Assembly (NCBI GenBank): GCA_963720265.1
Contig: CAVRET010000002.1
Location: 520,704 to 584,703, forward strand
Direction of reading: 5' to 3'
DNA length: 64,000 nt
Source of the DNA: an uncultured bacterium
GTDB lineage: Bacteria > Patescibacteriota > Saccharimonadia > UBA4664
The translations under genes and the position numbers were made by a program. Shown here piece after piece: positions 9,614 through 23,883 of the stretch (positions within the stretch are counted from its first letter, which is position 1; the number at the start of each line of letters is the position of its first letter). The notes beneath the pieces were generated by a model. It saw only the letters and a program-made list of their open reading frames with translations, was not told where the DNA came from and made no database searches.

Positions 9614-9650
9614 AATGCTATGTAATAATCTAAAACTAAAGGACTGACCG

Positions 9651-10022
9651 GTGACAGCTCTCAGCCCCGAATTCATCCAATATGCCAACAAGCTTGTAAA
9701 CGACCATCCTGACGACATCGTGGCCGTGTACAATCTCGATTCAACCTGCGCCTGGGCCTCACCCACGCATGAGACCATCCTTGGCTATTCGCAAACCGAA
9801 ATGATTGGCCTGCCTTGGACTCGCTTTGTAGCGCCCCGCGACCGTGCCCATGCCAGTCTGGCCGGCGCCGACGCCATGCTCACCGGCCGTTCGGTCGAAT
9901 TTGGTTTCAGCGCCGTCACCAAATCCGGCGATCATATTCCGGTGCGGGGCCACGCCTGGATCCGTACCGACGAGCCCACTCACAAACGTTACTTGATCTT
10001 CCAGGCCAGCCCCCGACCCTAG
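9651..10022 (+). CDS. stand-alone PAS-domain protein
   Basis: 123 aa with a PAS-fold-like layout (DDIVAVYNLDSTCAWASPTHETILGYSQTEMIGLPWTRFVAPRD...). Lies between two tRNAs. Confidence 0.5.
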   Translation: MTALSPEFIQYANKLVNDHPDDIVAVYNLDSTCAWASPTHETILGYSQTEMIGLPWTRFVAPRDRAHASLAGADAMLTGRSVEFGFSAVTKSGDHIPVRGHAWIRTDEPTHKRYLIFQASPRP

Positions 10023-10067
10023 CCAAGATCGTTCATTTGCTCTATGCTGTACAAGTTTCCGTATCAC

Positions 10068-10144
10068 GGGCCATTAGCTCAGTTGGTTAGAGCAGCTGCC
10101 TCTTAAGCAGCGTGTCCTGGGTTCGAGTCCCAGATGGCCCTCCA
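10068..10144 (+). tRNA. tRNA-Lys (anticodon CTT)
   Basis: Acceptor GGGCCAT/ATGGCCC, anticodon loop CTCTTAA, T-loop TTCGAGT, encoded CCA. Its 3' end GATGGCCCTCCA is reiterated in every array repeat. Confidence 0.85.
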
Positions 10145-10190
10145 TAGCACTTATGCTTAAACGACCGAAAGGTCGTTTTTGATATGATTA
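10133..10190 (+). repeat. array repeat R0 (native tRNA-Lys 3' end plus 3' flank: conserved box, hairpin/T-run, TGaTATGAT)
   Basis: GATGGCCCTCCA-TAGCACTTATGCTTAAA-ACGACCGAAAGGTCGTTTTT-GATATGATTA. Confidence 0.8.
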
Positions 10191-10194
10191 ACCC

Positions 10195-10716
10195 ATGCCA
10201 CTCATATACGTTACTGGCATTGCTGGTTCAGGAAAGTCTGCGGCCCAAAAAGAACTCCAGAGACGAGGGTATGAGGCCCATGATGTCGACGAGCCGGGAA
10301 TTGGCGCAGCCTATAATCTACAAACTGGTGAGATTGTTAGTATCCCTGACGCAGCAGAGCGGTCGCCGGAATGGTTTGAGGCACACACCTGGAAGATGGA
10401 CCTTGAGGCTGTTAAGGAACTCAAAGCTCGGTCGCTTCATGGCGTTATATATTTATGTGGGCGAGCGGGCAATGAAAGCGAAGCCTGGCGATTATTTGAC
10501 AAGGTTGTCTACCTCGATATAAATGACGACACACTGCGTTGGCGTCTTGCCGTGAGGGAGGACAATGACTTTGGCAAGACAGAACATGAACTCCAGCAGA
10601 TTCTTAAAAGAAATAAGCGAGCCCGCGAGGAGTTTGAGCCACTTGGCGCTGTATTTATTGATGCTTCAGAGTCACTAGATAAAGTTGTTGGTGAGATTGT
10701 GAAACAATCACAGTAG
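10195..10716 (+). CDS. P-loop NTPase / small-molecule or nucleotide kinase-like protein (cassette 1)
   Basis: Walker A GIAGSGKSAAQ at the N-terminus, 173 aa. Stop TAG 10714-10716 lies inside repeat R1 (caGTAGcaa). Confidence 0.6.
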   Translation: MPLIYVTGIAGSGKSAAQKELQRRGYEAHDVDEPGIGAAYNLQTGEIVSIPDAAERSPEWFEAHTWKMDLEAVKELKARSLHGVIYLCGRAGNESEAWRLFDKVVYLDINDDTLRWRLAVREDNDFGKTEHELQQILKRNKRAREEFEPLGAVFIDASESLDKVVGEIVKQSQ

Positions 10717-10780
10717 CAACGGTCGTCACTACGGCCATCCATAGCACTTATGCTTAAAAAGAAACCGCAAGGTTTCTTTT
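10711..10780 (+). repeat. array repeat R1
   Basis: CAGTAGCAACGGTCGTCACTACGGCCATCCATAGCACTTATGCTTAAA + hairpin GAAACCGCAAGGTTTC + TTTT. Confidence 0.8.
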
Positions 10781-10990
10781 GTGTTAGCTAGAATAGTTCA
10801 AATGAGCAAGTTACTCTCAGGTCAAACACTCGCGACGATTACTGTCATTTCAGTGCTCCTTGTTCTCTGTGCATTTACTTGGCCCGCAATCAATAAAGCC
10901 AGGGCCACTTCCCATCTCAAACGGGTATTCAGCCAAGAGGCTAGCCCGCTAATCCCGGAAGTAACCGCCCTATGGAGGGGTGCATTCTAG
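10781..10990 (+). CDS. small membrane protein, possibly the N-terminal fragment of a frameshifted cassette gene (cassette 2)
   Basis: TM helix ATITVISVLLVLCAF. Its frame matches the TAG embedded in repeat R2, but the frame closes at 10990. Confidence 0.3.
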   Translation: MLARIVQMSKLLSGQTLATITVISVLLVLCAFTWPAINKARATSHLKRVFSQEASPLIPEVTALWRGAF

Positions 10991-11440
10991 CAATAGATTG
11001 GAATGTGACGAGGTAGCGCACACCCGTACCAAATCACAACTCTACTGCAAGGATACGCAGGCGTTCAAATACAACCCGGTACCCCTTCCCGATTCATCAC
11101 GGTCTGAAATAGTTACTGAAGCTACACGCCTCGACAAGGCACTCGTTCAAAACGGTTGGGCAGTGGATAGGGCCCAAGATACAACCAAGACCATCGCGGC
11201 CAGTATACCGACGGCTCCTGTTGCAGCCTTTCACGGGGGTGGTGTGCCATTCCACAAAAACATTGGGGATATAAGCTGCAATCTTGAGGTTAGGTTCAGC
11301 GGACCTACGGACGGAGTCTCACCCGGTGTGATAACCATAAATCGATCTCGTGCCAACAAAATATTGCGTATTTTATGCTTCATGCATCGAACTATACAAA
11401 TCACGGATTTGGTGGTCAAAGCCTCGTACTTTAGTTGCTA
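10980..11440 (+). pseudogene. hypothetical ORF continuing cassette 2 in another frame (possible frameshifted gene)
   Basis: ~150-codon open frame with no stop before R2. It reads straight through the repeat into the next gene, which produces the artifactual 381-aa track ORF. Confidence 0.25.
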
Positions 11441-11508
11441 CAGCCTGTACGATGGCCCTCCAAAGAGCTTATGCTTAAAAACGACCACCAGTTCGTTTTG
11501 TTATCATG
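11431..11508 (+). repeat. array repeat R2
   Basis: TTAGTTGCTACAGCCTGTACGATGGCCCTCCAAAGAGCTTATGCTTAAAA + hairpin ACGACCACCAGTTCGTTTT + GTTATCATGG. Confidence 0.8.
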
Positions 11509-11513
11509 GGAGC

Positions 11514-12125
11514 ATGAAGCCATATATACTTGGTTTGTGCGGCGGATCGGGTTCAGGAAAATCTACACTAGCATTTGGGTTGGCCGATATGCATCCAGGT
11601 GAAGTTACAGTATTCCACTTAGATGATTACTTCCGGCCCAGAGAAGAAGTTCTCACACTACATGGTTTCGTCAATTATGATGACCCCAGAGCCCTAAACA
11701 GTGACAAGATGATAGCTGACTTAGCCACGCTTATTAGCGGCAAGCCGGTTACTATTAACACAAAAAGCCCTAGACTGAATCCCGATTATGTCAAAACCAG
11801 GCAGCGGGTACCGGTCCGATTTGAGCCAAATAAGTTAATTGTGGTTGAAGGCTTCTTGACCTTGTATTTTGAGGAACTCAGAAAGCACTTTGATTATTCG
11901 ATTTACTTGGATGCCCCTTTTGATGACAGCACAGGCAGGCGCGCAGGCGAAAAGATAAACAATTACTCCCCTGAATATTTCAAGCTCGTGCTAAAGCCAA
12001 TGAGCGAAAGATACGTATATCCAAATAAAAAATATGCTAGTCGCGTTGTGAATATTGAAGGCAAATCAAAGCAATACGTTCTGAATGAAGTTGAAGAAAT
12101 CTTAAACAGCCAGAGTGTCTTTTAA
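11514..12125 (+). CDS. uridine kinase / phosphoribulokinase-family P-loop kinase (cassette 3)
   Basis: LGLCGGSGSGKSTLA P-loop, DDYF, and a IVVEGFLTLYF...YLDAP layout typical of Udk/PRK. ATG 11514 lies just after R2. Confidence 0.7.
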   Translation: MKPYILGLCGGSGSGKSTLAFGLADMHPGEVTVFHLDDYFRPREEVLTLHGFVNYDDPRALNSDKMIADLATLISGKPVTINTKSPRLNPDYVKTRQRVPVRFEPNKLIVVEGFLTLYFEELRKHFDYSIYLDAPFDDSTGRRAGEKINNYSPEYFKLVLKPMSERYVYPNKKYASRVVNIEGKSKQYVLNEVEEILNSQSVF

Positions 12126-12147
12126 CTCCTGAACTTCGGTTCTAACA

Positions 12148-12215
12148 GAATGAACGATGGCCCTCCATAGCACTTATAATTAAATAACAGCTCTACAGAG
12201 CTGTTATTTAATTAT
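12148..12215 (+). repeat. array repeat R3 (variant downstream half)
   Basis: ACGATGGCCCTCCATAGCACTTATAATTAAATAACAGCTCTACAGAGCTGTTATTTAATTATTGG. The hairpin is AAATAACAGCTCT/AGAGCTGTTATTT. Confidence 0.7.
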
Positions 12216-12238
12216 TGGAACTCTGATAAAATACTTGC

Positions 12239-13015
12239 ATGTATATTTCGGTCGACATCGGCGGCACCAACATTCGCATCGCTGCAACCTCGAGCTTAGA
12301 AATCCCTCGATTCGAGCCTGCACCGATCCGAGCAAAAAGTACGCGCAATTACGAGCGTGACCTCAGTTTCATCATCGACGGCGCCCGCAGACTGGCCGGC
12401 AGCAAGCCGATCAGAGCAGTCGGCATCGGCATGCCCGGCAGTTTTAACGATCAAAAAACCGAGCTCGTTTCAACCAGATATACCAAGCACTGGGTTGGCC
12501 ATCCGTTTGTGGCCACGCTAAGTAATGAGCTAAACTGCCCAGTCTTTATCGAAAATGATGGCGTCGCTGCCGGCCTTGGCGAAGCCTACTACGGCAACCA
12601 CCCGAAGCAATTTTGCTATGTAGTTTGGGGCACCGGCATCGGCGGCGCGTCAATAGTGACGAATGCGGACAAAACCCAAGTTGAGGTCGCAAAGTTCGAC
12701 CACAAAACGCACTTCAAAGCCTGGGAAGACGACTGCGGCGGTCACGAACTGGAGGAGCATTATCACAAAACGCCGGCTGACCTCAGTGCCGAACAATGGC
12801 AAAAGGTGATGGGGAAGTTCGAGACTCATCTCCACATGTTCATTGAGCTTACCGGCACGAGAGCAGTGGTCTTTGGCGGCGGCATCGCCATTAGGAAGCG
12901 GCAAGAGCTTGAGGCCATGGCAACAGCTCAAACAAGTGTAACCGCCTCAAATTTTAACGAGGACAGTGGGGTATATGGCGGCCTCGGTGTAATTCGGGCT
13001 AACGTTCACTTATGA
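12239..13015 (+). CDS. ROK-family sugar kinase / transcriptional-regulator-like (BadF/BadG/BcrA/BcrD ATPase fold) (cassette 4a)
   Basis: N-terminal MYISVDIGGTNIRIA phosphate-1 motif, GIGMPG, and GTGIGG motifs of ROK/glucokinase. Confidence 0.65.
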   Translation: MYISVDIGGTNIRIAATSSLEIPRFEPAPIRAKSTRNYERDLSFIIDGARRLAGSKPIRAVGIGMPGSFNDQKTELVSTRYTKHWVGHPFVATLSNELNCPVFIENDGVAAGLGEAYYGNHPKQFCYVVWGTGIGGASIVTNADKTQVEVAKFDHKTHFKAWEDDCGGHELEEHYHKTPADLSAEQWQKVMGKFETHLHMFIELTGTRAVVFGGGIAIRKRQELEAMATAQTSVTASNFNEDSGVYGGLGVIRANVHL

Positions 13016-13620
13016 TAAACACAATGACAAAATATGTACTCAACTCAGGTGGCATCAAACACCAGCCCGAACTTAAGAAGAAGTTTCACCAGGAGCTCAT
13101 TAAAGGCTTGAGCTCCAATCCAAAATTCGTACTCTGCAATTTCGCCCAAGGCCGCGAGTATTGGGAAGTGAAATTCCAGGGCTACTCTGACACGATCACG
13201 GAAGATATGCCGGCCAACATAAAGCCCACATATGAATTAGCGCTACCAACTACGTTTACTGAGCAATGCAAAAATACTGATGTCATCTACTTCCACGGCG
13301 GTGATGACCACTTACTGCAGTTTTGGCTGAAGCAATTTGACCTAACCGAGCTATTTAAAAACAAAGTTGTCGCCACTAACTCGGCGAGCTCCGACATGCT
13401 TGCCACCCACCATTGGACATGCGATTGGCGCGCTTGCGCCGACGGACTCGCCGTACTGCCGATCAAATTCATTCCCCATTATTTATCCAATTTTGGCGAT
13501 AGCGATCCGCGCGGCCCAATAGATTGGCAAAAGGCTTATGACGAGCTAGCAGCGTACGGCGATACGTCGTTACCGATTTACGCCCTCAAAGAAGGTGAGT
13601 TTATCGTCAAGGAGCAGTAA
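13012..13620 (+). CDS. peptidase S51 (PepE)-like / class-I glutamine amidotransferase-like protein (cassette 4b)
   Basis: VIYFHGGDDHLLQFW...VVATNSASSDMLA resembles the PepE IYxxGGN...GxSAG block. ATGA overlap with the ROK gene. Confidence 0.4.
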   Translation: MINTMTKYVLNSGGIKHQPELKKKFHQELIKGLSSNPKFVLCNFAQGREYWEVKFQGYSDTITEDMPANIKPTYELALPTTFTEQCKNTDVIYFHGGDDHLLQFWLKQFDLTELFKNKVVATNSASSDMLATHHWTCDWRACADGLAVLPIKFIPHYLSNFGDSDPRGPIDWQKAYDELAAYGDTSLPIYALKEGEFIVKEQ

Positions 13621-13676
13621 TGCCTATACTTCAGCCCCGATCCGCGCAATATGTAGGTCCTGAGATCGCCTTACCT

Positions 13677-13750
13677 CAGTAGCAATAGCTTCTACGATGG
13701 CCCTCCATAGCACTTATGCTTAAAACGACTAACAAAGTCGTTTTTGTTAC
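13677..13750 (+). repeat. array repeat R4 (consensus form)
   Basis: CAGTAGCAATAGCTTCTACGATGGCCCTCCATAGCACTTATGCTTAAAACGACTAACAAAGTCGTTTTTGTTAC. Confidence 0.85.
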
Positions 13751-13783
13751 AGTAATACTTAGAACAGTATTTTATATATAACT

Positions 13784-14233
13784 TTGAGGCATATTATGGC
13801 CCACGCCGAAAGCAGCGCAGACATCAATCGAACACCCCGGGCAGTGTATGATTTTCTGGTCGATGGGCTCAATAATTCAAAATGGCGCAGTGCAGTTGTT
13901 GAAATTAGCCTAAAACACGGGTCTGTCGGTCAAGTTGGGACGGAGTATCGCCAAGTTCTCAAGGGCCCAGGCAGTCGCACCATTCATGGCGATTACCACC
14001 TGACTGCCGCCGAATCTCCATCCCGGATCGCGTTTGAAGTGACTGCGGGACCCGCCAGGCCCAGGGGCGAGTACCGGCTTGTGGCCTCTGGGGATGGTAC
14101 GAAAGTCACCTTTATTCTCGACCTTAAAACCTCTGGCTTGATGAAACTTATGGAACCAATGATTCGCCAAACCATGCAGTCAGAAGTATCAAACTTAGCT
14201 CAACTCAAGGCCATCTTAGAGCTTAGTAAATAG
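13784..14233 (+). CDS. SRPBCC (START/Bet v1/polyketide-cyclase-like) family protein (cassette 5)
   Basis: ~145 aa. A RTPRAVYDFLVDGLNNSKWRSAV N-terminus is typical of the SRPBCC ligand-binding fold. Alternative start at 13796. Confidence 0.55.
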   Translation: MRHIMAHAESSADINRTPRAVYDFLVDGLNNSKWRSAVVEISLKHGSVGQVGTEYRQVLKGPGSRTIHGDYHLTAAESPSRIAFEVTAGPARPRGEYRLVASGDGTKVTFILDLKTSGLMKLMEPMIRQTMQSEVSNLAQLKAILELSK

Positions 14234-14306
14234 CTACTGGTGGTAAAAAAGCAGTATATAAACTTTACAATGCCATGACATGAACCGTCTGCAACTGTCG
14301 TATTAT

Positions 14307-14380
14307 GGTTGCAATAGCTTCCACGATGGCCCTCCATAGCACTGATGCTTAAACGACCGACAGGTCATTTTTGTTATGAT
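14307..14380 (+). repeat. array repeat R5
   Basis: GGTTGCAATAGCTTCCACGATGGCCCTCCATAGCACTGATGCTTAAACGACCGACAGGTCATTTTTGTTATGATTGCC. Confidence 0.8.
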
Positions 14381-14386
14381 TGCCAC

Positions 14387-14794
14387 ATGCACAAAGAAGA
14401 ATTCGTCGAAGCCGTTAAAAAACTTGGCCTCAAGCCGAATGATTATATTGTTGTTGGCTCCGGTGTGTTGGTGGCTCTGGGTATCCGTACGGCCACTGAC
14501 GTTGACCTCATAGTCAGTGAGCCGATTTTTCATCAATTTGAAGAAACAGGTGAGTGGCAGCGCAAAGATTTCGATGATGGGACGCATTATCTGCTTAAAG
14601 GTAAGTATGAAATTGGCCTCGACTGGGATGGCGAGAATACTACGCCGAACCTTAAAGATTTGAAGAAGTCGGAGGTTGTAATTGATAATATTCCGTTTGT
14701 TAGTCTCGAACGCCTCCGCCACTGGAAGGCTTGGAAGAATACGCCAAAGCACCTCGCAGACATTCGTTTGATAGACGACTACCTAAGCAGGTAA
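14387..14794 (+). CDS. minimal nucleotidyltransferase (Pol-beta superfamily) domain protein (cassette 6)
   Basis: Carries the two halves of the nucleotidyltransferase signature: hG[GS] (VVGSGVLVALGIR) and DxD (TATDVDLIV). 135 aa. Confidence 0.5.
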   Translation: MHKEEFVEAVKKLGLKPNDYIVVGSGVLVALGIRTATDVDLIVSEPIFHQFEETGEWQRKDFDDGTHYLLKGKYEIGLDWDGENTTPNLKDLKKSEVVIDNIPFVSLERLRHWKAWKNTPKHLADIRLIDDYLSR

Positions 14795-14828
14795 AGCTAG
14801 CTCAACAATCAAAGGCCTTTGAGCCAAG

Positions 14829-14910
14829 ACAGTAGTTGCTACAGCCTGTACGATGGCCCTCCAGCAATAATCATTAAATAACGGCTTCACAGAGCCGTTA
14901 TTTCGTTATT
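14829..14910 (+). repeat. array repeat R6 (variant downstream half)
   Basis: CAGTAGTTGCTACAGCCTGTACGATGGCCCTCCAGCAATAATCATTAAATAACGGCTTCACAGAGCCGTTATTTCGTTATTCG. Confidence 0.75.
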
Positions 14911-15199
14911 CGTTCTTAGCCCTAACGACATGTTAGAGCTAGCTAGGTTAATGGTTATTTGAAATTACATAAGATATATGTTATAAGTGTATGTAGGCTC
15001 AACTATCCAGAGGAGTGCATGGTGCCTATTCACTCGATTGTCTTGGCTGTGAATAATCCACCCCGAGACGAGGTGGAGAGTGTCGTCAAAATGATGGCGG
15101 GCGGTGGATGGAGATCTGTGTGGTGCGCAGACCGCGCATCACTTGACCAGTTGCTGCCTCCTCCGGAGCGCCGCATTGGCTATGTGGTCGTGGGACTGT

Positions 15200-15800
15200 C
15201 TGGCTCACTCAGTGAACCACCTCGGGCTAAAGCCCGAGGCTTCCTTGGGGCGGCATGCTGGGTTTAGCTTTCCATTGATTTTCGATATACCGTTTAATCG
15301 CCTGCTCCGTGTTACGACCAACACTCTCGGCGAAGTAGCCATCCGCCCAGAAGCTATCTCCCCATAACCATTCTTCCAGTTCAGGATGCGTCTGGCGGAT
15401 AGCCCGACTTGATCCGCCCTTGAAGATTTGTACTACCTGTGACACCGAGATGCTGGGAGGTAGTTCAATAAGCATATGAATGTGGTCGGGCATCACTGCC
15501 AGCCGCTCAATCCACCAGTCGTTCATCTCTGCGCACTGAAAGAATAATCGCTTCAGGTCAGTGGCGACTTCGCCCCGCAGGATGCTTTTGCGGTACTTGG
15601 GTATCCAGACGATATGAAATTGCAGGCGATATAGCGTATGCGCACCGGAATAATATTTTTTACCTGACTTCACATACCCAGCATGCCAGACTGTCGGCGC
15701 CAGCGCCAAGGTTGACCGCCATCCGACTTAGCCTTGGTGCTACCGCCTTAAGCGGACCCATTCATCCCTGGCCTAAAGGCCCAGGGGTCTCTGGGAGGTT
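15200..15800 (-). mobile_element. IS200/IS605-family insertion sequence (tnpA only)
   Basis: Y1 HUH transposase gene flanked by two subterminal hairpins with identical loops: CCTCGGGCTAAAGCCCGAGG (15219-15239) and CCCTGGCCTAAAGGCCCAGGG (15766-15786). Boundaries are approximate. Confidence 0.7.
15227..15709 (-). CDS. tnpA: IS200/IS605 family transposase TnpA (Y1 HUH)
   Basis: HIVWIPKYRK and the HUH motif PDHIHMLIE, with the catalytic Tyr region YIENQWK. ~150 aa. Confidence 0.85.
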   Translation of the reverse strand: MALAPTVWHAGYVKSGKKYYSGAHTLYRLQFHIVWIPKYRKSILRGEVATDLKRLFFQCAEMNDWWIERLAVMPDHIHMLIELPPSISVSQVVQIFKGGSSRAIRQTHPELEEWLWGDSFWADGYFAESVGRNTEQAIKRYIENQWKAKPSMPPQGSLGL

Positions 15801-16043
15801 ACTAGAGAGGACATCGCCCCTCATATTCCAAGCGACCTACGTGACGTTGCCGCGTTTGGCCCTGGAGCGAGAAGTTTCGGAATGGTCGTCTAGCTACGAT
15901 TTTTCCGCAGATGAGAGCACTATGGTCAAAGTAATGGCTAACGACCTCGATGCCCTCTCCCGCGAGGCTCTACTCAGCCGACTCCTGAGCCCCCGAATTC
16001 ACAAATGCGCAGACCGATCGGGGTCTGCGCTCTTTCTTTCACT

Positions 16044-16130
16044 GCAGTAGCAATAGCTTCTACGATGGCCCTCCAGAGCTCTTATGCTTAAAATGACTTC
16101 CGCAAGGGAGTCATTTTGGTATCATTATCA
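16044..16130 (+). repeat. array repeat R7
   Basis: TGCAGTAGCAATAGCTTCTACGATGGCCCTCCAGAGCTCTTATGCTTAAAATGACTTCCGCAAGGGAGTCATTTTGGTATCATTATC. Confidence 0.85.
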
Positions 16131-16132
16131 AG

Positions 16133-16675
16133 ATGAATGAATTCCAAACCACCCAGCTAAATGAAATTCTGGCCCGCGACCGAGAATTGGCAAAAAAGTT
16201 CGCTGAACTTAAGGAAGTTTTTGCTCAAAAATTTGGTGAAGATAGCGACATGTACGAAAGGGCGACCGCCATCTTCCTAGCTAACGCCCTCAACGGTGCT
16301 GCAGACTATGGAATTCCGCCCCTATATTCTGTGTATTGGAAACCATATCAAACCCAGAACCTCTTGCATCACATCACTACCAAGAAAAACGTCGACTCCA
16401 TTCGCAGGCATGGTCTGGAACCACGTGACCCTTCTCCTCGTCCATGGGCCGGCATGAAGGCGGTCTATATGGCCGAACCAAATGACCCGCTTTACGATAA
16501 ATCCGAACAAGCGGTCTTGGGTCATGTGCGTAAAAAAGGCGAAAACCCTGTGTTACTACAAATCAAAACCAATAACAAACTCTACAAGTCAATTGAACCA
16601 GGCCGAACCTTCCAAGTGATTTCGGTTGACCACATCGGACCTGAGGAAATCGTTGACTACCAAGGTCCAGGCTAA
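16133..16675 (+). CDS. hypothetical protein (cassette 8)
   Basis: 180-aa ORF starting right after R7. No recognisable domain. Confidence 0.45.
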   Translation: MNEFQTTQLNEILARDRELAKKFAELKEVFAQKFGEDSDMYERATAIFLANALNGAADYGIPPLYSVYWKPYQTQNLLHHITTKKNVDSIRRHGLEPRDPSPRPWAGMKAVYMAEPNDPLYDKSEQAVLGHVRKKGENPVLLQIKTNNKLYKSIEPGRTFQVISVDHIGPEEIVDYQGPG

Positions 16676-16708
16676 TATCGTTACGTACGGCTCTTCAGCC
16701 TGACGCAG

Positions 16709-16792
16709 ACTAGTTGCGATAGCGTATACGATGGCCCTCCGTAGTACTTATGCTTTAAGACTCCATCGGGAGTCTTTTTGCTTTGCTATGAT
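16709..16792 (+). repeat. array repeat R8
   Basis: CTAGTTGCGATAGCGTATACGATGGCCCTCCGTAGTACTTATGCTTTAAGACTCCATCGGGAGTCTTTTTGCTTTGCTATGATG. Confidence 0.8.
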
Positions 16793-16794
16793 GA

Positions 16795-17448
16795 ATGCAT
16801 ATGAGCAGTCTCTCCGAATATGAGGCAAAACCCTGGCCCTATACGGTAATTGTGGGCATCATTATTTACGTTGCAATTGATATTCTCTTGGCTTTTCTAA
16901 GGCCCGATTACAGTAGCCTGCATAACGCTGAAAGCGATTATGGCAGAGGTCCCTACTCTTGGGTTATGGACATTAATTTTTTGCTACGCTGTGTGTTATC
17001 GCTAGCTTTAGTAAAAGCTATCTGGACCACCTTCCCTAAAGAAAAGCCCATTAAGAAAGCTTCTTATTGGCTCATTGCATGGGCGATTTCTTCAGGGCTG
17101 CTGGCATTCTTCGCTGACAATCCCTTCGGCTATCCCAAGCTTAAGAGTGGTTCAATACACCTACTGTTGGCTTTTGTAGTATTTATCAGTGCTTTAGTAG
17201 GAATGGTTTTGCTAACTAGACGCTTTATGATTGTCCAGGCTTGGCGCGATACCGCTGGTTTACTGGTAGGCATAACGATACTCGCAATAGTATCCCTAGT
17301 ACTAATGGGTTACGTAGGGATTAGGCCACACACATTAGGCGGCTTATATGAAAGATTTTTTCTAGGCTCGGTACTTCTATGGGAAGGGGTTGTTGCTATA
17401 AAAATTATTTCAGGTAACAATACGTCCTCTTCAGCTAGTCGCAAATAG
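16795..17448 (+). CDS. polytopic membrane protein, unknown function (cassette 9)
   Basis: ~6 predicted TM helices, 217 aa. Confidence 0.45.
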   Translation: MHMSSLSEYEAKPWPYTVIVGIIIYVAIDILLAFLRPDYSSLHNAESDYGRGPYSWVMDINFLLRCVLSLALVKAIWTTFPKEKPIKKASYWLIAWAISSGLLAFFADNPFGYPKLKSGSIHLLLAFVVFISALVGMVLLTRRFMIVQAWRDTAGLLVGITILAIVSLVLMGYVGIRPHTLGGLYERFFLGSVLLWEGVVAIKIISGNNTSSSASRK

Positions 17449-17478
17449 CAAAAAACAATCCAATTACTACCTTGTATT

Positions 17479-17512
17479 ACAGTGCGATAGCGTGCACGAT
17501 GGCACTCACACT
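17479..17512 (+). repeat. array repeat R9 (upstream half only, degenerate)
   Basis: CAGTGCGATAGCGTGCACGATGGCACTCACAC. It lacks the conserved box and hairpin. Confidence 0.5.
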
Positions 17513-17868
17513 TACCCCGCAAAAATAGTATGAAGCACCGTCATAAGTTTGGATCTTTGGCTTGGTGATATCTCGGCAATACGCTCCCTAAGCCTGGCTT
17601 TATCAACGACTCTTAGCTGGTCACAGGCGGCGCTAGACTTCCGTCCCAAAATATTCACGTCCACCCGAAAAGGCCAGCTGGTTCTGGTCGTTGTCATTGG
17701 AATGATAAGTACCGTCTTCAAGAAATCGTTCATCTCGTCCGGAGATATTACGAGGCCGGGTCTAATTTTCTGAAGCTCTGAACCTCGTGTGGGATCCGGG
17801 TCAAACCAATAAACCGAGAACCGCCTAATGTTTGTCACGTGCGAGCCATTCCTCGTAGGTCGGACCAT
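17512..17868 (-). CDS. mazF: type II toxin, MazF/PemK/Kid-family mRNA interferase
   Basis: VYWFDPDPTRGSELQKIRPGLVISPDEMN...IIPMTTT...CDQLRVVDKARL parallels MazF/Kid blocks. Start is uncertain (candidates 17835-17895). Confidence 0.65.
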   Translation of the reverse strand: MVRPTRNGSHVTNIRRFSVYWFDPDPTRGSELQKIRPGLVISPDEMNDFLKTVLIIPMTTTRTSWPFRVDVNILGRKSSAACDQLRVVDKARLRERIAEISPSQRSKLMTVLHTIFAG

Positions 17869-18142
17869 CCCAAGGCATACTGTCGAGCCCATCACTGGCT
17901 GCAGCGTCCCACGATGTCAAGTCGGTATCATCGGCCAAGGCATGGGGGTTAGACGCTAAAACTGCTTGAATTTGCTGCCTCCACCCTTGTCTTGGATTAG
18001 CCGCAGAACGAATCACTATCTCGCCTGGTCGAGCCTCCAATTCAACCGCGTCTTCCAGATTGCTCAAAGCAAGCAACGCCTTTGGCAGCCGCACTGCTTT
18101 ACTATTACCGGACGTAGTTAATCTCGTAGATATCGTTGACAT
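17825..18142 (-). CDS. mazE: type II antitoxin (AbrB/MazE-type swapped-hairpin domain)
   Basis: TTSGNSKAVRLPKALL matches the SpoVT/AbrB motif. Sits upstream of and overlaps the toxin gene. Confidence 0.6.
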   Translation of the reverse strand: MSTISTRLTTSGNSKAVRLPKALLALSNLEDAVELEARPGEIVIRSAANPRQGWRQQIQAVLASNPHALADDTDLTSWDAAASDGLDSMPWDGPTYEEWLARDKH

Positions 18143-18228
18143 ATGTACATTGTACGTACCTCACTCGATTCGTTCAATAGGGATAATGTCCGAAAGGCGC
18201 AACTTTAGGGTCGGGCTTTAGCCGGATC

Positions 18229-18312
18229 TCAGTGGCAATAGACTCCACGATGGTCCTCCATAACACTCATGCTTAAACTTCTCTACATCGAGGAGTTTTT
18301 TGTTGCTATGCT
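18229..18312 (+). repeat. array repeat R10
   Basis: CAGTGGCAATAGACTCCACGATGGTCCTCCATAACACTCATGCTTAAACTTCTCTACATCGAGGAGTTTTTTGTTGCTATGCTTTGACTATGG. Confidence 0.8.
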
Positions 18313-18897
18313 TTGACTATGGAAACCTTTAAAGACCTTCCGGTACTGCTAGCCGCTACACAATCTGACTGGAGAGCCTGGCTTGAGGAAAACCATATGC
18401 AGCTTCGGGGTATATGGCTCAAGCACGCGAAAAAGTCGTCTGGAAAGCCGTCAGTTAGCTATACGGAGGCACTGGAAGAGGCGTTGTGTTACGGCTGGAT
18501 AGATAGTCAAAAGCAAGCTTACGATGAGGACTATTTTCTGCAAAAGTTTACGCCTAGGGGCCCTAAAAGCGTGTGGTCTAAAATTAACGTTGCCAAAGCT
18601 GAAGCGCTCATTAAGTCAAGAAAAATGCAGCCAGCCGGATTGGAGACAATCAGTGCGGCCAAGCAGGATGGTAGATGGGACGCCGCCTACGACTCCTCAA
18701 GTTCGAATAAAATTCCGGAAGATTTTCAGGCGGCTTTAAATGAAAACCCTAAAGCCAAGCAGTTTTTTGAGACGCTCAATAAAGCGAACATTTACGCTTT
18801 TTCCTGGCGGATACAAACCGCTAAAAAGCCGGAAACCCGGAAAGCAAAAATCGACCAGTTTATCGAGATGCTAAATCGAGGCCAGAAACTTCATTAG
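18313..18897 (+). CDS. YdeI/OmpD-associated family (DUF1801-like) protein (cassette 11)
   Basis: 194 aa. WIDSQKQAYDEDYFLQKFTPRGPKSVWSKIN...KAKQFFETLNKANIYAFSWRIQTAKKPETR is typical of this family. Stop TAG 18895-18897 is inside repeat R11 (caTTAGcaa). Confidence 0.55.
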   Translation: MTMETFKDLPVLLAATQSDWRAWLEENHMQLRGIWLKHAKKSSGKPSVSYTEALEEALCYGWIDSQKQAYDEDYFLQKFTPRGPKSVWSKINVAKAEALIKSRKMQPAGLETISAAKQDGRWDAAYDSSSSNKIPEDFQAALNENPKAKQFFETLNKANIYAFSWRIQTAKKPETRKAKIDQFIEMLNRGQKLH

Positions 18898-18990
18898 CAA
18901 GCCCAATTTGAGTTGCGACAGCGCCTACTGTGGCCCTCCGGCAATTATCTTCAAACTAATAGCTTCCTGAAGCCATTAGTTTATTATCCA
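18893..18990 (+). repeat. array repeat R11 (variant downstream half)
   Basis: CATTAGCAAGCCCAATTTGAGTTGCGACAGCGCCTACTGTGGCCCTCCGGCAATTATCTTCAAACTAATAGCTTCCTGAAGCCATTAGTTTATTATCC. Confidence 0.7.
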
Positions 18991-19149
18991 AGCACGCCAC
19001 CCTAGTAGACGTGCAACTATCCTCGCCATATGATTATCTACATGAGCAATCGGCCTGGATTAGTAAAGCAATTCAATGAAGCTTTTTCAAAAGGCGACCG
19101 ACATCTAGCAGAGGAACTGTTGGCCCCTAACTTCACGTTCTCGGCGCCG

Positions 19150-19750
19150 CCCGATCCCTTAACCCCGCGAGGAACCCCGGAGCTTGCTCCGGGGAGGGAT
19201 AGCGCCGGCGAGCACCTGTCCGCCTCTGGTGGACACAGCAGTCTTTCATTAGCACAATGGTGGTATGGACGTTCAAATCGGTGCCCACTGTCGGTATCAG
19301 ATTCGGTACCATTTGGTATGGGGTGTCAAACTTCGACGCAAGGTACTGCTAGCCAACCGCAGCCAATACTTAAAGCGGGTGCTTGTCGAGATAGCCCAGG
19401 CTTACGACTGGGAGCTGGAAGCTGTTGGCACCGATGACGACCATGTCCATGTATTTATAGGTGCTCATCCAAAAATCGCGCCAGAGAAGTTGGTACAGAT
19501 CTTAAAAAGCAAGAGCGCACGGGCCTTGTTTGTCCAGTTTCCCGAAGTCAAACAGTTCTTGTGGGGCGGTGCGATGTGGAGTGTCGGCTATTACATTAGG
19601 ACCGTCTCTGACGGTCCGTTGGAAGGAGTTATAAAGACGTATGTTGAGCAACAAGGTAAGCACCGACCCACTCAGGCCAAATCGTACCAACTGAAGCTGG
19701 TGCCCTAAGTGACAACCACGGAGCTTGCTCCGTGGGGGTGTCTTTTTTTG
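19150..19750 (+). mobile_element. second, unrelated IS200/IS605-family insertion sequence (tnpA only)
   Basis: Subterminal hairpins CCCCGGAGCTTGCTCCGGGG (19175-19194) and CCACGGAGCTTGCTCCGTGG (19717-19736) flank a Y1 transposase gene. Boundaries are approximate. Confidence 0.7.
19265..19708 (+). CDS. tnpA: IS200/IS605 family transposase TnpA (Y1 HUH)
   Basis: YHLVWGVKLRRKVL and the HUH motif DDHVHVFIG, with a C-terminal Tyr region. Only distantly similar to the first tnpA. Confidence 0.85.
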   Translation: MDVQIGAHCRYQIRYHLVWGVKLRRKVLLANRSQYLKRVLVEIAQAYDWELEAVGTDDDHVHVFIGAHPKIAPEKLVQILKSKSARALFVQFPEVKQFLWGGAMWSVGYYIRTVSDGPLEGVIKTYVEQQGKHRPTQAKSYQLKLVP

Positions 19751-20052
19751 GACCGTGACGGGTTCTTTCAGAAATGCTGGCCTCAGGGACATAACCTTAA
19801 AAATATTGAGTATGTGCGCGTAACAGAAAATGCTGATGAAGTTATCATCACGCATGAATACGCTAAGCCAGACGGCGCCAAGGGGCGCAATACCGACGTA
19901 ATTACATTTGATGGAGATAAAATCATCCGTTTGGAAGTCTATTTTGGTTGGGACACAAAAGACTGGTAGTTGTTTTCAGAATTCCTGCCAAACAATCCTC
20001 GGAAATTTTCCCCTAAGATACGTCAGAGAACGTAAGACGCAAGGGGAACTAC

Positions 20053-20805
20053 ATGGCTAAAGAAAGCATCAACGACAAAGTAGTTATTATTACTGGGGCA
20101 ACTTCGGGTATCGGAGAGGCTACTGCTAGGCTGCTGGCGACCGAAGGTGCCATCACGGTCCTGGCGGGCAGACGAGCGGAGCGGCTGGACAGACTCCGTG
20201 GCGAAATCGAAAAAAGCGGCGGGCAGGCTATGTCCGTAGAAACGGATGTCACCAAATTCGACGACACTCGGCGGCTTATCGACACCGTGCACAAAAAATA
20301 CGGCCGCATCGACATCTTATTCAACAACGCCGGCGTTATGCTGCTCGGCCCGGTGCTAGACGCCGATGTCACCGATTGGCAGCGGATGATCGATACCAAC
20401 CTATATGGGCTCATCTGGTGCACGCACGCAGTCTTGCCGCACATGGTCAAGCAAGGGAGCGGCCACATTGTTCAAACGTCGTCGGTTGCCGGCCGCACCG
20501 CCAACTCAGGCAGCGCCGTCTACAACCTCACCAAGTGGGGGGTTAATGCCTTCACTGAGGCTCTGCGTCGGGAACTAGTGGAATCCAAAATCAGGACGAC
20601 AATCATCGAGCCCGGTCTGGTAGCCACAGAGCTGCGTGAGCACATTACGAACCGGGAGGCCAAAGACCGTGTCAACGAGTGGGCCGAATCGGTGCGTCAG
20701 CTGCAGGCGGAAGATATTGCAAATGCCGTCCTCTACGCCGTCACACAGCCCAGTCATGTAGACGTCAATGAGATCCTAATTCGCCCAACCGACCAACAGC
20801 GGTAA
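20053..20805 (+). CDS. SDR-family NAD(P)-dependent oxidoreductase
   Basis: TGATSGIGEA Rossmann motif, NNAG, and a Y..K catalytic region typical of short-chain dehydrogenases. Confidence 0.8.
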   Translation: MAKESINDKVVIITGATSGIGEATARLLATEGAITVLAGRRAERLDRLRGEIEKSGGQAMSVETDVTKFDDTRRLIDTVHKKYGRIDILFNNAGVMLLGPVLDADVTDWQRMIDTNLYGLIWCTHAVLPHMVKQGSGHIVQTSSVAGRTANSGSAVYNLTKWGVNAFTEALRRELVESKIRTTIIEPGLVATELREHITNREAKDRVNEWAESVRQLQAEDIANAVLYAVTQPSHVDVNEILIRPTDQQR

Positions 20806-20837
20806 ACCGATGAGAGAGCTCAGCCGCGCCGGTGATG

Positions 20838-21224
20838 CTATTGTCCGGCCGTCGGCTCCCACAGCTCGACCTTGTTGCCTTCCGGGTCAATCACCCAGCC
20901 AAACTTCCCATATTCTGATTCATCGACCTTGTCCAATACATTGCAGCCCTCTCCCTTAAGAGCCTCCAGCAGCGCCCGGAGGTCGGCTACCCGGTAGTTC
21001 ACCATAAAGGTAGCCGTGCTTGGCGCGAAAGAGTCATCATCGGCAGACGTGATGGACCAAGCCGTTGTGCCGCCAACAGGTTTGCCAGCTCCATCTGTCC
21101 AGTCAAAGGCGGCGCCTCCCCAGTCTTGCACGTCGATGCCAAGGTGCCGCTTGTACCAGGCCTGCATTGCCTTTGGGTCTTTGGCTTTAAAGAAGATGCC
21201 ACCAATACCAGTAACGCGGTTCAT
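20838..21224 (-). CDS. VOC-family (glyoxalase/bleomycin-resistance fold) protein
   Basis: 128 aa with the VOC beta-alpha-beta-beta-beta arrangement (GIGGIFFKAKDPKAMQAWYKRHLG...). Confidence 0.6.
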   Translation of the reverse strand: MNRVTGIGGIFFKAKDPKAMQAWYKRHLGIDVQDWGGAAFDWTDGAGKPVGGTTAWSITSADDDSFAPSTATFMVNYRVADLRALLEALKGEGCNVLDKVDESEYGKFGWVIDPEGNKVELWEPTAGQ

Positions 21225-21245
21225 ACTAAAACTATATCAAAAAGT

Positions 21246-21292
21246 ATGCGCGATCGCCCTCCAGGCATTTTGTTGTTTTCTGCTATGATGCG
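21246..21292 (+). repeat. array repeat R12 (degenerate, probable right end of array)
   Basis: GCGCGATCGCCCTCCAGGCATTTTGTTGTTTTCTGCTATGATGCG retains CCCTCCA, a T-run, and CTATGAT. Confidence 0.45.
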
Positions 21293-21295
21293 CTC

Positions 21296-21898
21296 ATGAA
21301 AAACATGGAGCGCTTCGTCAATTTCAGCGACGGGGTCATGGCTATTGCCGTAACGTTGCTGGTGCTGCCTCTGGCCGAACGCGCGTCCAACGCCCGTATC
21401 AACTCGTACCACGATTTCCAAGCCGCATTTGCGCATCAACTCGCCATTTTCTTCCTCAGCTTTGTTGTCATTTGCCGCTACTGGGAGGTCCACCACAATC
21501 TATTTAGTTCCCTCAAAACTTTTAGCGCCCTCCTATTTTGGCTCAACGCCGCCTGGCTGGCCTCCATAGTACTCGTGCCGTTTACCTCCGAAATCATCGG
21601 CAACGCGAGCGGTACAAATGCATTTACGACTGCCGTTTACATTGGCTCACTACTCATCACAAGCTACATCGGCGTGGCGATCCAATGGGTGATCGTGCAA
21701 TCGCCGCAACTGCGAAAACCCGGTGTTCTGGCGCCGTCGCGTTTGCTTTACGGAGCTACCAGCGCCGTGGCCATGACCGCGGCCTTCGTGTTGAGCGTTC
21801 TCGTGCCTAGCATCGGGCCCTGGTCGCTTTTGCTGCTCATTCCGGCCGGTTACGTGGCTAAATATTGGCCGGCACAGCTCAAGCACAACCTCTCATAA
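21296..21898 (+). CDS. DUF1211 / TMEM175-like membrane protein (putative K+ channel family)
   Basis: N-terminal signature RFVNFSDGVMAIAVTLLVLPL (compare the FSDGVFAIAITLL motif) and 6 TM helices. Confidence 0.65.
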   Translation: MKNMERFVNFSDGVMAIAVTLLVLPLAERASNARINSYHDFQAAFAHQLAIFFLSFVVICRYWEVHHNLFSSLKTFSALLFWLNAAWLASIVLVPFTSEIIGNASGTNAFTTAVYIGSLLITSYIGVAIQWVIVQSPQLRKPGVLAPSRLLYGATSAVAMTAAFVLSVLVPSIGPWSLLLLIPAGYVAKYWPAQLKHNLS

Positions 21899-22026
21899 AG
21901 CGCAGGTTAATCCCGCAGGCGCTCACCAACACACGCACCACCAATGTCCCCGCTGCCACGGCCAACAGCAGGAAGTGGAGGCAGGTCTCTTCGACAGTGT
22001 TGCTACGATTATAAGCCAAGGAAATA

Positions 22027-22659
22027 TTGTTCTGGTATGCTCATGGCATGACGACTACTCTGTCTGAGCTGATCGGCAAGATCAAGTCTCTGCGTCCCGG
22101 CCAAACCGGCCTGGTCTGCATTGGCATTTCCGGCTACGGCGGATCGGGGAAATCAACGCTAGCCGCGAGATTAGCACAGGCATTGCCCGGCTCGGTTGTG
22201 GTCTCAATTGATGATTTTATACGAAGAGCCCCTACCGACCGGTCAACCAACTGGGGTACATTCAACCGCGCACGGCTTTGCCACGACATTCTGAGCGAGG
22301 CACGGCCGGGCCAGTCAATCACCTACTTGCAGCAACAATCCGGGATTGTGGCGGATCATAAAAAAGGCACCAGGCGCACCATTACGCTGCGGAACTATCT
22401 CATCATCGAAGGCTGCAGCGTCCTTCACCCAAGGTTGATGCATTATTACGATTACTCAATCTGGATCGACTGTCCGCAACCAGTGGCCCTGGAGCGAGCT
22501 GAAGCGCGCGACCAGTCAGAAGGGCGCAGCTACAAACTTTGGGACGATGTCTGGGGTCCGGACGACCGCGACTACTTCAAACATTTCCGTCCCGATCGTT
22601 TGGCCGACGTTGAGATCAAACCAGCCGCCTTCGAGCCGTCCGGCCACGCACAACAATGA
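22027..22659 (+). CDS. uridine kinase-like P-loop kinase (second copy of this family in the window)
   Basis: GISGYGGSGKSTLA P-loop, IDDF, and LIIEG blocks. Confidence 0.6.
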   Translation: MFWYAHGMTTTLSELIGKIKSLRPGQTGLVCIGISGYGGSGKSTLAARLAQALPGSVVVSIDDFIRRAPTDRSTNWGTFNRARLCHDILSEARPGQSITYLQQQSGIVADHKKGTRRTITLRNYLIIEGCSVLHPRLMHYYDYSIWIDCPQPVALERAEARDQSEGRSYKLWDDVWGPDDRDYFKHFRPDRLADVEIKPAAFEPSGHAQQ

Positions 22660-23206: not shown

Positions 23207-23267
23207 AATGCTTTAGTATAGCAGGAAACACTCAGCCGACCGGCTGCCAATTTGCTATGCTCAGCAC

Positions 23268-23780: not shown

Positions 23781-23883
23781 CCACAGCGCCGCTCAGTTCG
23801 GTAAACTTGCAATAGTCAGTAAAAAATGATATAAACATAAAACCTAGCCTCTGGAGCTAGGCCGACCCGACACTGGGAGCAAC

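Follow-up and report, generated by a model that had tools for sequence, protein, structure and literature searches.

Background

The closest described relatives of the gene array considered here are sedentary chromosomal integrons and clusters of attC sites lacking integron integrases (CALINs), the cis-mobilizable elements (CIMEs) found beside integrative and conjugative elements (ICEs), the tRNA attachment sites of tyrosine integrases, and the tycheposons of Prochlorococcus. The array lies in a 64,000-nt stretch of DNA from an uncultured bacterium of the Saccharimonadia (Patescibacteriota; assembly GCA_963720265.1, contig CAVRET010000002.1, positions 520,704 to 584,703), and this whole stretch is referred to below as the window. 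One repeat of the array, at positions 16044-16130 of the window, is the focus of this study. On the evidence presented below, we place somewhat more than even confidence in the reading that this repeat is a junction between two cassettes, and that its array arose as cassettes lacking a recombinase were inserted site-specifically, one after another, where a tRNA-Lys(CTT) gene ends.

Like sedentary chromosomal integrons and CALINs, the arrays described here are made up of small cassettes (median about 750 bp) of miscellaneous function, which share an orientation and mostly hold one gene; they include toxin-antitoxin pairs and insertion sequence (IS) insertions, show a short conserved repeat at each boundary and start from a fixed chromosomal entry; in some hosts the repeats are lineage-flavoured, and some open reading frames (ORFs) end within the repeat. 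They differ from integrons in having no IntI and no attI beside an integrase, the entry being the 3' end of tRNA-Lys, and in that their repeats hold a 10-16-nt copy of the tRNA end and no attC-like hairpin of single-stranded DNA. They differ further in the predicted terminator and leaderless promoter of each cassette, which take the place of a common Pc promoter, and in their host, a member of the Candidate Phyla Radiation (CPR).

Beside ICEs, for example at the tRNA-Lys(CTT) gene of Streptococcus agalactiae, CIMEs reportedly form tandem, integrase-less elements flanked by att sites. They are said to share with the arrays the lack of a recombinase, the direct repeats of a tRNA 3' end, the tandem placement behind an intact tRNA and a recombinase supplied from elsewhere. 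By the same accounts, CIMEs are few in number, range in size from kilobases to tens of kilobases and derive by decay from a recognisable ICE that has their att site, whereas the units of the present arrays number up to 12 or more, hold one gene each and bring a dedicated conserved arm and an expression module at the 5' end. Because these units are stereotyped and hold one gene each, and no parent element was found in the comparison loci or the viral, phage and plasmid sets, the arrays appear to differ from CIME accretion. The class III (3'-terminal, asymmetric) tRNA sites of tyrosine integrases are reportedly similar in that the identity segment comprises only the 3' acceptor strand and CCA, and in that the tRNA is regenerated intact; there, the element that integrates is said to carry its own integrase gene beside the att site, whereas here none was found in the elements.

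Tycheposons are tRNA-adjacent islands with their own tyrosine or serine recombinase, often with replication genes, and with cargo of up to 10 kb or more (10.1101/2020.12.28.424599). The arrays resemble these and other Prochlorococcus islands in the location of flexible genes by particular tRNAs, the inward displacement of older material, the partial tRNA scars and the streamlined host, and differ in their unit size (0.2-3.6 kb, with one or two ORFs), in their lack of a recombinase and in their stereotyped junction. The arrays can thus be described as tandem integration at a tRNA, which is of a known kind, combined with an integron-like cassette architecture. More tentatively, and with rather less than even confidence, we suggest that Saccharimonadia may hold a new, independently evolved gene-capture system of integron-like form, with tRNA-Lys as its dock, self-expressing cassettes bearing an arm and a 10-12-nt tRNA mimic, and an unlinked recombinase. 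Keyword searches of PubMed Central (PMC) and bioRxiv returned no account of such arrays in Saccharibacteria or other CPR, although keywords cannot prove absence.

The repeat array behind tRNA-Lys

The tRNA-Lys(CTT) gene was located at 10068-10144 on the plus strand (ARAGORN; Rfam tRNA model, 69.6 bits). This gene anchors the array, and the 12 nt at its end, GATGGCCCTCCA (genuine copy at 10133-10144), constitute the core of the repeats. On the plus strand after the tRNA, the core recurs exactly at 11451, 12156, 13696, 14325, 14852 and 16064, with one mismatch at 16730, 18249 and 21252, and with three mismatches at 10730, 18929 and 17498, the last of which was called degenerate. The genuine tRNA end and these 12 recurrences make up the 13 copies counted in the preliminary description of this DNA, 17498 included. 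Between 10133 and 21252, the seven exact matches (tRNA included) and the three with one mismatch are all on the plus strand; with up to two mismatches allowed, the window holds 15 matches, against 5.9 expected, and none of 100 shuffles reached 15.

Conservation is not limited to the tRNA-derived segment. The box CTTATGCTTAAA was matched 10 times in the window (0.24 expected) and the arm AGTTGCRAYAGC eight times (1.3 expected), with just one arm match and two box matches outside the array. Aligned copies share four elements, namely a 19-nt arm (window consensus yAGTwGCrAyAGCnnnyAC), the core, a box of 12-17 nt (TAGCACTTATGCTTAAA, 17 nt), and a hairpin with T-run followed by a TGnTATGAT-like element. 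The repeat family is restricted to 10.1-21.3 kb of the window. The earlier proposal, in which its members join the cassettes of an array in the manner of att sites and have a core derived from the tRNA, is supported.

10145-21263, plus strand: array made up of about 12 cassettes of 0.5-2.4 kb, with small genes of unrelated functions, mainly on the plus strand

The G + C content of the array is 47-50%, compared with 56-60% in its flanks. According to Pfam, its products include an AAA_18 kinase, a PRK-like kinase, a ROK and an S51-like protein, Polyketide_cyc2, DUF998, MazEF (minus strand), YdeI/OmdA, an IS200-interrupted SnoaL-like protein, an SDR protein and a glyoxalase. Four of the cassette proteins had exact matches solely in the source genome and in its own short-read assembly (ERR11523669), in which the gene order is identical. 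When Rfam was applied to the whole window at gathering thresholds, and to 9900-21500 by E-value, tRNAs alone were matched and no RNA family fitted the repeats.

Two further ideas on the repeats were considered and ruled out. Duplication of a target site, or of a CRISPR-like repeat, was rejected because the genuine tRNA copy has no arm, and a role as DNA-uptake sequence was rejected because arm and box are restricted to the array.

Anatomy of the junction at 16044-16130

The sequence of 16044-16130 is identical to that quoted earlier, and it can be resolved into five parts.

16045-16063, plus strand: arm, 19 nt, forming the 3' end of cassette 7; it holds the TAG stop (16048-16050) of ORF 15712-16050
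16064-16075, plus strand: core, 12 nt, identical to the tRNA-Lys 3' end, CCA included
16076-16092, plus strand: box, 17 nt, GAGCTCTTATGCTTAAA, whose final As are the A-tract of the terminator
16090-16117, plus strand: terminator-like hairpin AAAATGACTTCC/GCAA/GGGAGTCATTTT, minimum free energy (MFE) -22.1 kcal/mol, z = -3.2
16117-16132, plus strand: extended -10 element TGGTATCAT with a 7-nt spacer, followed by the ATG at 16133

Cassette 8, which starts at this ATG, encodes a protein of 180 aa that has no Pfam match, and the position of the -10 element predicts a leaderless start for it.

Several details of the arm had been read differently before. The arm was thought to alternate between GTAGCAAy and its reverse complement; GTAGCAAy and GTTGCTAC turned out to be one-base variants of the near-palindrome GTTGCAAC, and the AGC...AC part after the near-palindrome is never inverted. 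A small GTAG...CTAC inverted repeat exists in two window copies only and is missing from the family consensus. ORF stops within the arm were correctly noted at 10714 and 16048, whereas the one at 18895 lies 13 nt 5' of the arm.

Relatives and family consensus

A scan of a genome collection for core plus box gave matches in metagenome-assembled genomes (MAGs) of GTDB named Saccharibacteria, Saccharimonadia or Patescibacteria. In those MAGs, tRNA-Lys precedes the same box, hairpin and TGnTATGAT, and arm-core junctions (CAGTTGCAACAGCnnGCAC-GATGGCCCTCCA) are spaced every 0.4-1.5 kb. A metagenome scan for arm plus core gave at least 120 contigs, and the habitats of the arrays are soil, peat and freshwater metagenomes. 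The flanks of the window are syntenic with MAGs (locus L005) and with metagenome contigs L089 and L090 over TrxB, MurB, a 133-aa protein and tRNAs, at 56-86% protein identity, which places the window almost certainly within the Saccharimonadia.

Comparison loci and contigs are labelled L plus a number; the array loci number 131 and comprise about 750 kb and 919 ORFs. After orientation and de-duplication, at least 235 junctions and at least 22 genuine tRNA-Lys ends formed the basis of the family statistics. The family logo (aAttttaGTTGCrAyAGCnTctAC, GATGGCCCTCCA, AtacgCTTATGCTTAAA) is the same when drawn from junctions outside the search pattern, and the arm can be summarized as yAGTTGCrAyAGCnTCTAC. 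Among the 152 non-redundant cassettes, the median length is 752 bp (interquartile range 539-1222) and the longest ORF is co-oriented with the tRNA in 81%; units of the family measure 0.2-3.6 kb. ORFs mostly end 0-40 nt before the arm; they end inside it in 31 of 171 cases, so that a stop within the arm, which had been compared with the ends of integron cassette ORFs, is a minority feature.

Independent inheritance of the two halves

Across the 235 junctions, mutual information was high within the downstream half and within the arm, and there was none between arm and box. Arm and box thus assort independently, which indicates that the halves meet in the core.

The limits of homology between related cassettes agree with this division. 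A YdeI-type cassette present in L081 and L131 is 90% identical between them, and the homology runs from the core via box, hairpin and promoter into the gene and ends just past the stop codon, whereas the arms differ on both sides. Accordingly, box, terminator and promoter are the 5' end of the downstream cassette. The earlier statement that each cassette brings its own terminator and promoter is therefore upheld by this pair. Finer placement of the joint comes from arrays in which the tRNA ends in CCTGGCCCTCCA: their junction cores keep GATGG... and still read GATGGCCCTCCA, so the first two positions are carried by the cassette and the exchange would fall within TGGCCCTCCA.

The same set of junctions bears on the idea that the array is a genuine integron, or an integrase-less CALIN, whose attC happens to include a tRNA-like segment. 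The small, mostly one-gene and co-oriented cassettes, with a toxin-antitoxin pair and IS insertions among them, would fit this idea, as would the minority of ORFs that end in the repeat, and at the level of the cassette array the integron likeness drawn in the preliminary description holds. It is not supported at the level of attC. Arm, core and box of four copies, analysed as single-stranded DNA on both strands, gave no significant fold (MFE -2.3 to -6.7 kcal/mol, z -1.9 to +1.0), and covariation between arm and box was nil in the 235 junctions. Neither the 64-kb window nor the roughly 750 kb of related loci yielded a tyrosine recombinase resembling IntI, and the core of the repeat has the same sequence as the neighbouring tRNA end. 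Promoters are predicted within the cassettes themselves (105 of 174 sites), whereas PMC5027507 describes integron cassettes as promoterless. We therefore regard a true integron as extremely unlikely.

Cassette differences between near-identical strains

Whole cassettes distinguish contig pairs with flanks of at least 98.9% identity (at least 99.2% in most). Compared with L017, L030 contains an additional cassette of 351 nt that encodes a small GIY-YIG-like protein and is bounded by a 16-nt direct repeat, CCCACTGGGCCCTCCA, of the tRNA-Lys(TTT) end. Directly after the tRNA there is one cassette in L060 and there are three in L065, and in L081/L119 and L054/L099 the breakpoints lie in the arm or core. 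In three of these pairs (L017/L030, L060/L065 and L081/L119), the polymorphism is a presence or absence bounded by the repeats. The arrangement found is that of a tRNA-targeted element, in which the insert has the intact tRNA on one side and, on the other, a directly repeated copy of the 3' end of that tRNA. In the pair L054/L099, a multi-cassette block was replaced between flanks of 99.3-99.7% identity. The block includes a cassette that both share, with an identity of only 92.6%, and the change resembles the replacement of an allelic block through homologous recombination. Site-specific integration and homologous recombination thus probably both operate.

An alternative hypothesis assigns the whole process to homologous recombination, with the conserved arm, core and box sequences of 30-60 bp that flank the cassettes serving as portable homology, and the cassettes being gained, lost and swapped by RecA-dependent recombination or repeat slippage after DNA uptake or conjugation. 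Saccharibacteria are naturally competent according to PMC10187176, and a type IV secretion system (T4SS)/ICE-like element is present in these bacteria. The block replacement in L054/L099 resembles allelic exchange from another strain, breakpoints are scattered within arm and core, and the lineage-specific arms and boxes of some lineages fit gene conversion. However, the initial duplication of the end of the tRNA cannot come about by homologous recombination, which also leaves the exact 10-16-nt end segment on every unit unexplained, and the single-cassette difference between L017 and L030 has a 16-nt repeat as its precise boundary. The core, with 10-12 nt, is below the minimal segments that RecA usually processes, which exceed this length. 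In addition, the arm is conserved at specific positions across distant genomes, in the manner expected of a putative protein-binding site. Homologous recombination as the sole mechanism is thus rather unlikely, though of the explanations other than site-specific insertion it is the one to be taken most seriously.

Predicted terminators and leaderless promoters

The downstream half of the junctions appears to be an expression module. In 11 of the 13 window copies, an A-tract/stem/T-run hairpin begins about 15 nt past the CCA, with stems that differ between copies. The description of this hairpin as constant in form and variable in sequence was correct, except that it was said always to be present, and 17498 and 21252 lack it. 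Family-wide, a perfect stem of at least 5 bp with a T-run no more than 75 nt after the CCA was found at 129 of 257 sites, compared with 31 in shuffles and with 19 of 231 in an upstream control region. These 129 sites have 126 distinct hairpin sequences, and the onset is mostly 10-19 nt after the CCA. The form of the hairpin is thus conserved while its sequence is not; it has the make-up of an intrinsic (Rho-independent) terminator, and termination at the junction is predicted. The second variant of the downstream half, reported earlier for three copies, is real (cores 12156, 14852 and 18929); its hairpin AATAACGGCT...AGCCGTTATT recurs in other genomes, and its stem shows a compensatory change (CGGCT/AGCCG versus CAGCT/AGCTG).

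Promoters were counted at the 174 sites with a nearby plus-strand ORF starting with ATG. The motif TAnnnT begins 12 nt before the ATG at 83 of these and 13 nt before it at 22, so that the -10 element is set 6 or 7 nt, respectively, from the start codon; a TGn extension accompanies the -12 position at 68 sites, and Shine-Dalgarno-like motifs occur at only 16 of the 174. The short distance and the scarcity of Shine-Dalgarno motifs together predict leaderless mRNAs for the cassette genes, with transcription expected to start at the A of the ATG. The extended -10 elements previously named in the window (TGATATGAT, TGTTATCAT, TGTTATGAT and TGCTATGAT) were all found as listed. Their type is no cassette speciality: TGnTAnnnT-N6-ATG is also present ahead of housekeeping genes of the window, among them folD (42674), a sensor kinase gene (47454) and those at 24675 and 27148, and further leaderless-type promoters were found at 4163 (minus strand), 27655 and 33144 (minus strand). 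It is therefore the organism's ordinary promoter type, and this genome appears to use leaderless mRNAs widely. A generic sigma-70/terminator scan of the window showed no enrichment of promoter-like sites (13 versus 13.9 expected); such a scan is ill-suited to extended -10 promoters because it demands a -35 element.

Alternatively, the repeats might be expression or processing punctuation, with a tRNA-like 3' tag and a terminator-promoter module spread by duplication within a gene cluster, or non-autonomous IS200/IS605 ends moved by Y1 transposases of the array. Terminator and promoter are indeed the best-supported parts of the repeat, two Y1_Tnp genes lie in the window array, and in L031 a structured unit of 160 nt ends in a tRNA-like core. 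Nevertheless, where near-identical strains differ in the presence of a cassette, the cores mark the limits of the difference; the cassettes consist of unrelated genes with a foreign G + C content, and the logo shows nothing upstream of the arm that could pair with the core as an acceptor stem. Moreover, the 126 distinct hairpins stand on one side only, unlike IS200/IS605 ends, the other array loci have no Y1_Tnp, and the copy at 19161-19744 has simply inserted into a cassette. Taken together, these observations make punctuation or IS ends very unlikely as an explanation.

The L031 unit deserves a separate description. It is about 160 nt long and occurs three times (138-298, 718-880 and 1526-1689), placed between an arm-type junction with terminator and a second core that carries eight extra tRNA-Lys nucleotides (AAGTCCCGGCTGGCCCTCCA). 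RNAalifold predicted a multi-branch fold that is closed by a helix between the 5' end and the 3' end derived from the tRNA, with compensatory changes in 18 of 64 pairs, a figure derived from three copies only. The unit has no Rfam match.

Search for a recombinase

No Phage_integrase, IntI or other recombinase linked to the array was detected by Pfam among about 50 window ORFs. A phmmer search of the 919 ORFs with XerD and Hin as queries gave nothing below E = 0.79 (for the E. coli XerD query, the best was E = 3.5); its sensitivity was limited, as it missed a serine recombinase in L051. The core plus box and arm plus core patterns had no matches in viral collections (IMG/VR), BLAST of the junctions against phage and plasmid collections gave chance-level matches only (E 0.3-0.9), and no circular contigs were recovered via terminal repeats.

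The large serine recombinase of L051 (in the region 3274-7250), spotted by inspecting long ORFs, is the one such enzyme seen in the array loci. It belongs to a family of 556-612 aa with 56-85% identity and 1577 proteins at E <= 1e-20, the named ones from Saccharimonadales/Saccharibacteria. In the loci in which it was inspected (L051, and L133, L135 and L138 at about 10001-11800), the gene always has Replic_Relax, small ORFs and a changing cargo, such as restriction-modification genes, as its neighbours; in L133 and L138 a gene for a T4SS coupling protein is also close by. In L051, L135 and L138 the 3' end of the recombinase gene runs into a tRNA-Gln of convergent orientation, and no tRNA-Lys-type cores are present in L133, L135 and L138. 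This position and the missing cores indicate that the recombinase is the integrase of an ICE-like element attaching at tRNA-Gln, and it was rejected as the enzyme of the arrays.

One could still suppose that this recombinase or a paralogue acts in trans, with the roughly 40 bp of arm, core and box as a serine-integrase att site. It is the sole recombinase family met in any array locus, it is highly conserved in Saccharibacteria, and one arm-core junction lies inside the L051 element itself; the best centre of symmetry in the junction, GG/CC, has the outer motifs AGCAATAG and CTTATGCT 12 nt to each side. Against this, the element evidently has tRNA-Gln as its own attachment site (L051, L135 and L138), it occurs in one of the 131 array loci, its relatives in L133, L135 and L138 are not accompanied by tRNA-Lys-type cores, the acceptor ends of tRNA-Gln and tRNA-Lys differ, and the symmetry score is hardly above that of other centres. 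We consider action of this serine recombinase on the arrays quite unlikely.

Other candidates were also set aside. The two IS200-type Y1_Tnp genes of the window array (19161-19744, and 15227-15709 on the minus strand) are regarded as passengers and not as mobilisers, there being no Y1_Tnp in the other array loci.

19161-19744, plus strand: complete IS of IS200 type (Y1_Tnp), its terminal hairpins lying at 19173-19197 and 19714-19738; it interrupts a SnoaL-like cassette that is uninterrupted in L090

A Xer/dif-like reading of core plus box (11-6-11) was rejected, since the XerC-side arm would be the tRNA end and has no dyad symmetry with TTATGCTTAAA.

Proposed mechanism

As the most probable course of events, we propose that small circular cassettes, recombinase-less and with one gene each, insert in tandem at the 3' end of tRNA-Lys. 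The junction would be an attP-like composite of the upstream cassette's 3' arm, the tRNA-end core and the downstream cassette's 5' module, with strand exchange inside the core. The tRNA would remain intact and would take the role of an integron attI, and the recombinase would act in trans, being encoded neither in nor beside the arrays. The terminator may shield a cassette from read-through out of the tRNA or the preceding cassette, and the cassette promoter would yield the leaderless mRNA of its gene. Homologous recombination between arrays and IS200 insertions may add further variation. The circular intermediates are presumed, and that the recombinase is of the tyrosine type is a guess, made because the identity segment measures 10-16 nt.

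A number of observations weigh against this proposal. No recombinase, excised circle or autonomous parent with the same att site was found in the window, the comparison loci or the viral, phage and plasmid sets, and the evidence for promoters and terminators is wholly in silico. The 3' arms of L081 and L131 agree at 10 of 17 positions only, though their cassette is 90% identical, and in the L065/L131 lineage nearly the same arm, GCAACAGCATGCAC, stands on unrelated cassettes. Since arms are thus not strictly co-inherited with their cassettes, the simple model needs gene conversion or lineage-specific genesis of cassettes in addition. Identical 5' modules were found ahead of unrelated genes. Core decay with distance from the tRNA, visible in the window, is not significant over eight arrays (rho = 0.24, p = 0.064), and dyad symmetry of the junction about GG/CC is only marginally the best among centres.

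Homogenisation of arms within genomes was also considered; it is not general, arm similarity being 0.598 within loci and 0.586 between them. For the box, similarity is higher within loci (0.449) than between them (0.342).

Other junctions and neighbouring genes of the window

The remaining parts of the array, from the tRNA to its end, are as follows.

10145-10194, plus strand: 5' module of cassette 1, directly abutting the genuine tRNA; box TAGCACTTATGCTTAAA, hairpin CGACCGAAAGGTCG with T5, and TGATATGAT-N6-ATG (ATG at 10195)
10711-10801, plus strand: junction 1; arm CAGTAGCAACGGTCGTCAC, decayed core TACGGCCATCCA, box, hairpin with T-run, TAGAAT
11432-11513, plus strand: junction 2; arm, core, box, hairpin, TGTTATCAT-N6-ATG (ATG at 11514)
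12137-12238, plus strand: junction 3, downstream variant 2; long hairpin AAATAACAGCTCTACAGAGCTGTTATTT (z = -5.6), TGATAAAAT-N6-ATG (ATG at 12239)
13677-13783, plus strand: junction 4; arm CAGTAGCAATAGCTTCTAC, the same as the arm at 16045, core, box, hairpin
14306-14386, plus strand: junction 5; arm, core, box, hairpin, TGTTATGAT-N6-ATG (ATG at 14387)
14833-14910, plus strand: junction 6, downstream variant 2; hairpin AAATAACGGCTTCACAGAGCCGTTATTT at 14876-14903
16711-16794, plus strand: junction 8; arm, core with one mismatch, box, hairpin, TGCTATGAT, ATG at 16795 (DUF998)
17479-17509, plus strand: junction 9, decayed; arm and GATGGCACTCAC, with neither box nor hairpin, followed by the MazEF cassette (minus strand)
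18230-18318, plus strand: junction 10; arm, core with one mismatch, box, hairpin, TGCTATGCT-N6-ATG (ATG at 18319, YdeI/OmdA)
18910-18990, plus strand: junction 11, variant 2, decayed; arm GAGTTGCGACAGCGCCTAC, core TGTGGCCCTCCG, hairpin at 18953-18982
21252-21295, plus strand: probable terminal scar; GATCGCCCTCCA, with neither arm nor box, then a T-run and TGCTATGAT-N6-ATG (ATG at 21296)

The 5' module of cassette 1 is 87% identical to 14337-14390, which heads an unrelated gene, and the arm of junction 1 encloses the TAG stop of cassette 1 (10714-10716). The hairpin sequence of junction 6 was also found in L003, L011, L052, L068, L071 and L082, and the YdeI/OmdA cassette after junction 10 has a counterpart in L081 with a protein identity of 79%. 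A predicted ORF of 381 aa at 10980-12125 is an artefact, as it reads through junction 2, and the real gene starts at 11514. Within cassette 2 (10742-11462), the sole ORF has 62 aa (10802-10990) and is followed by about 440 nt with no convincing ORF.

The copy at 21252 coincides with the rise in G + C content and with the end of homology to L090; it is the weakest copy, and a 12-mer with one mismatch could occur there by chance. The block 21240-24600 is absent from L090. Past the last junction (21296-28218) lie TMEM175-like, AAA kinase, GNAT, NUDIX and RibD_C genes, homologues of which are bounded cassettes in L003 and L005, and a candidate arm remnant, GTGTTGCTACGAT, was noted near 22000. These small genes look like fossil cassettes with decayed junctions.

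On the other side of the array, a 454-nt insert (9614-10067) between tRNA-Arg(TCG) and tRNA-Lys carries an ORF for a PAS-domain protein of 123 aa (9651-10022); in L035 and L089 the two tRNAs are merely 3-9 nt apart. Just 5' of the tRNA cluster, at 6566-9094, is a gene for a GH59 (galactocerebrosidase-like) glycoside hydrolase of 842 aa with ricin-type lectin domains, an unexpected enzyme in an epibiont with a reduced genome. A 12-mer identical to the box, ACTTATGCTTAA, occurs once outside the array (4310-4345), 57 nt 3' of tRNA-Arg(CCG), where it forms an inverted repeat CTTATG...CATAAG right behind a TATAAT.

Conclusions

The acquisition of accessory genes in CPR/Patescibacteria, obligate epibionts with tiny genomes, is poorly understood, and the arrays point to a stereotyped, lineage-wide cassette platform at tRNA-Lys. 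They provide a defined locus in which to look for genes of strain-level adaptation, and a natural landing pad, with a predicted terminator and promoter, that could be used for genetics in cultivable, naturally competent Saccharibacteria. They also set a concrete target, the recombinase that would recognise arm, core and box, while the signal TGnTAnnnT-N6-ATG offers a practical rule for gene starts in these genomes. As an independent instance of an integron-like architecture, the arrays bear on the origin of cassette systems. If the proposed gene-capture system is true, much of the flux of accessory genes in these epibionts with reduced genomes would pass through it, making it a major route. 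Genes would also enter the stable chromosome in this way, as the apparent fossil cassettes past the last junction suggest.

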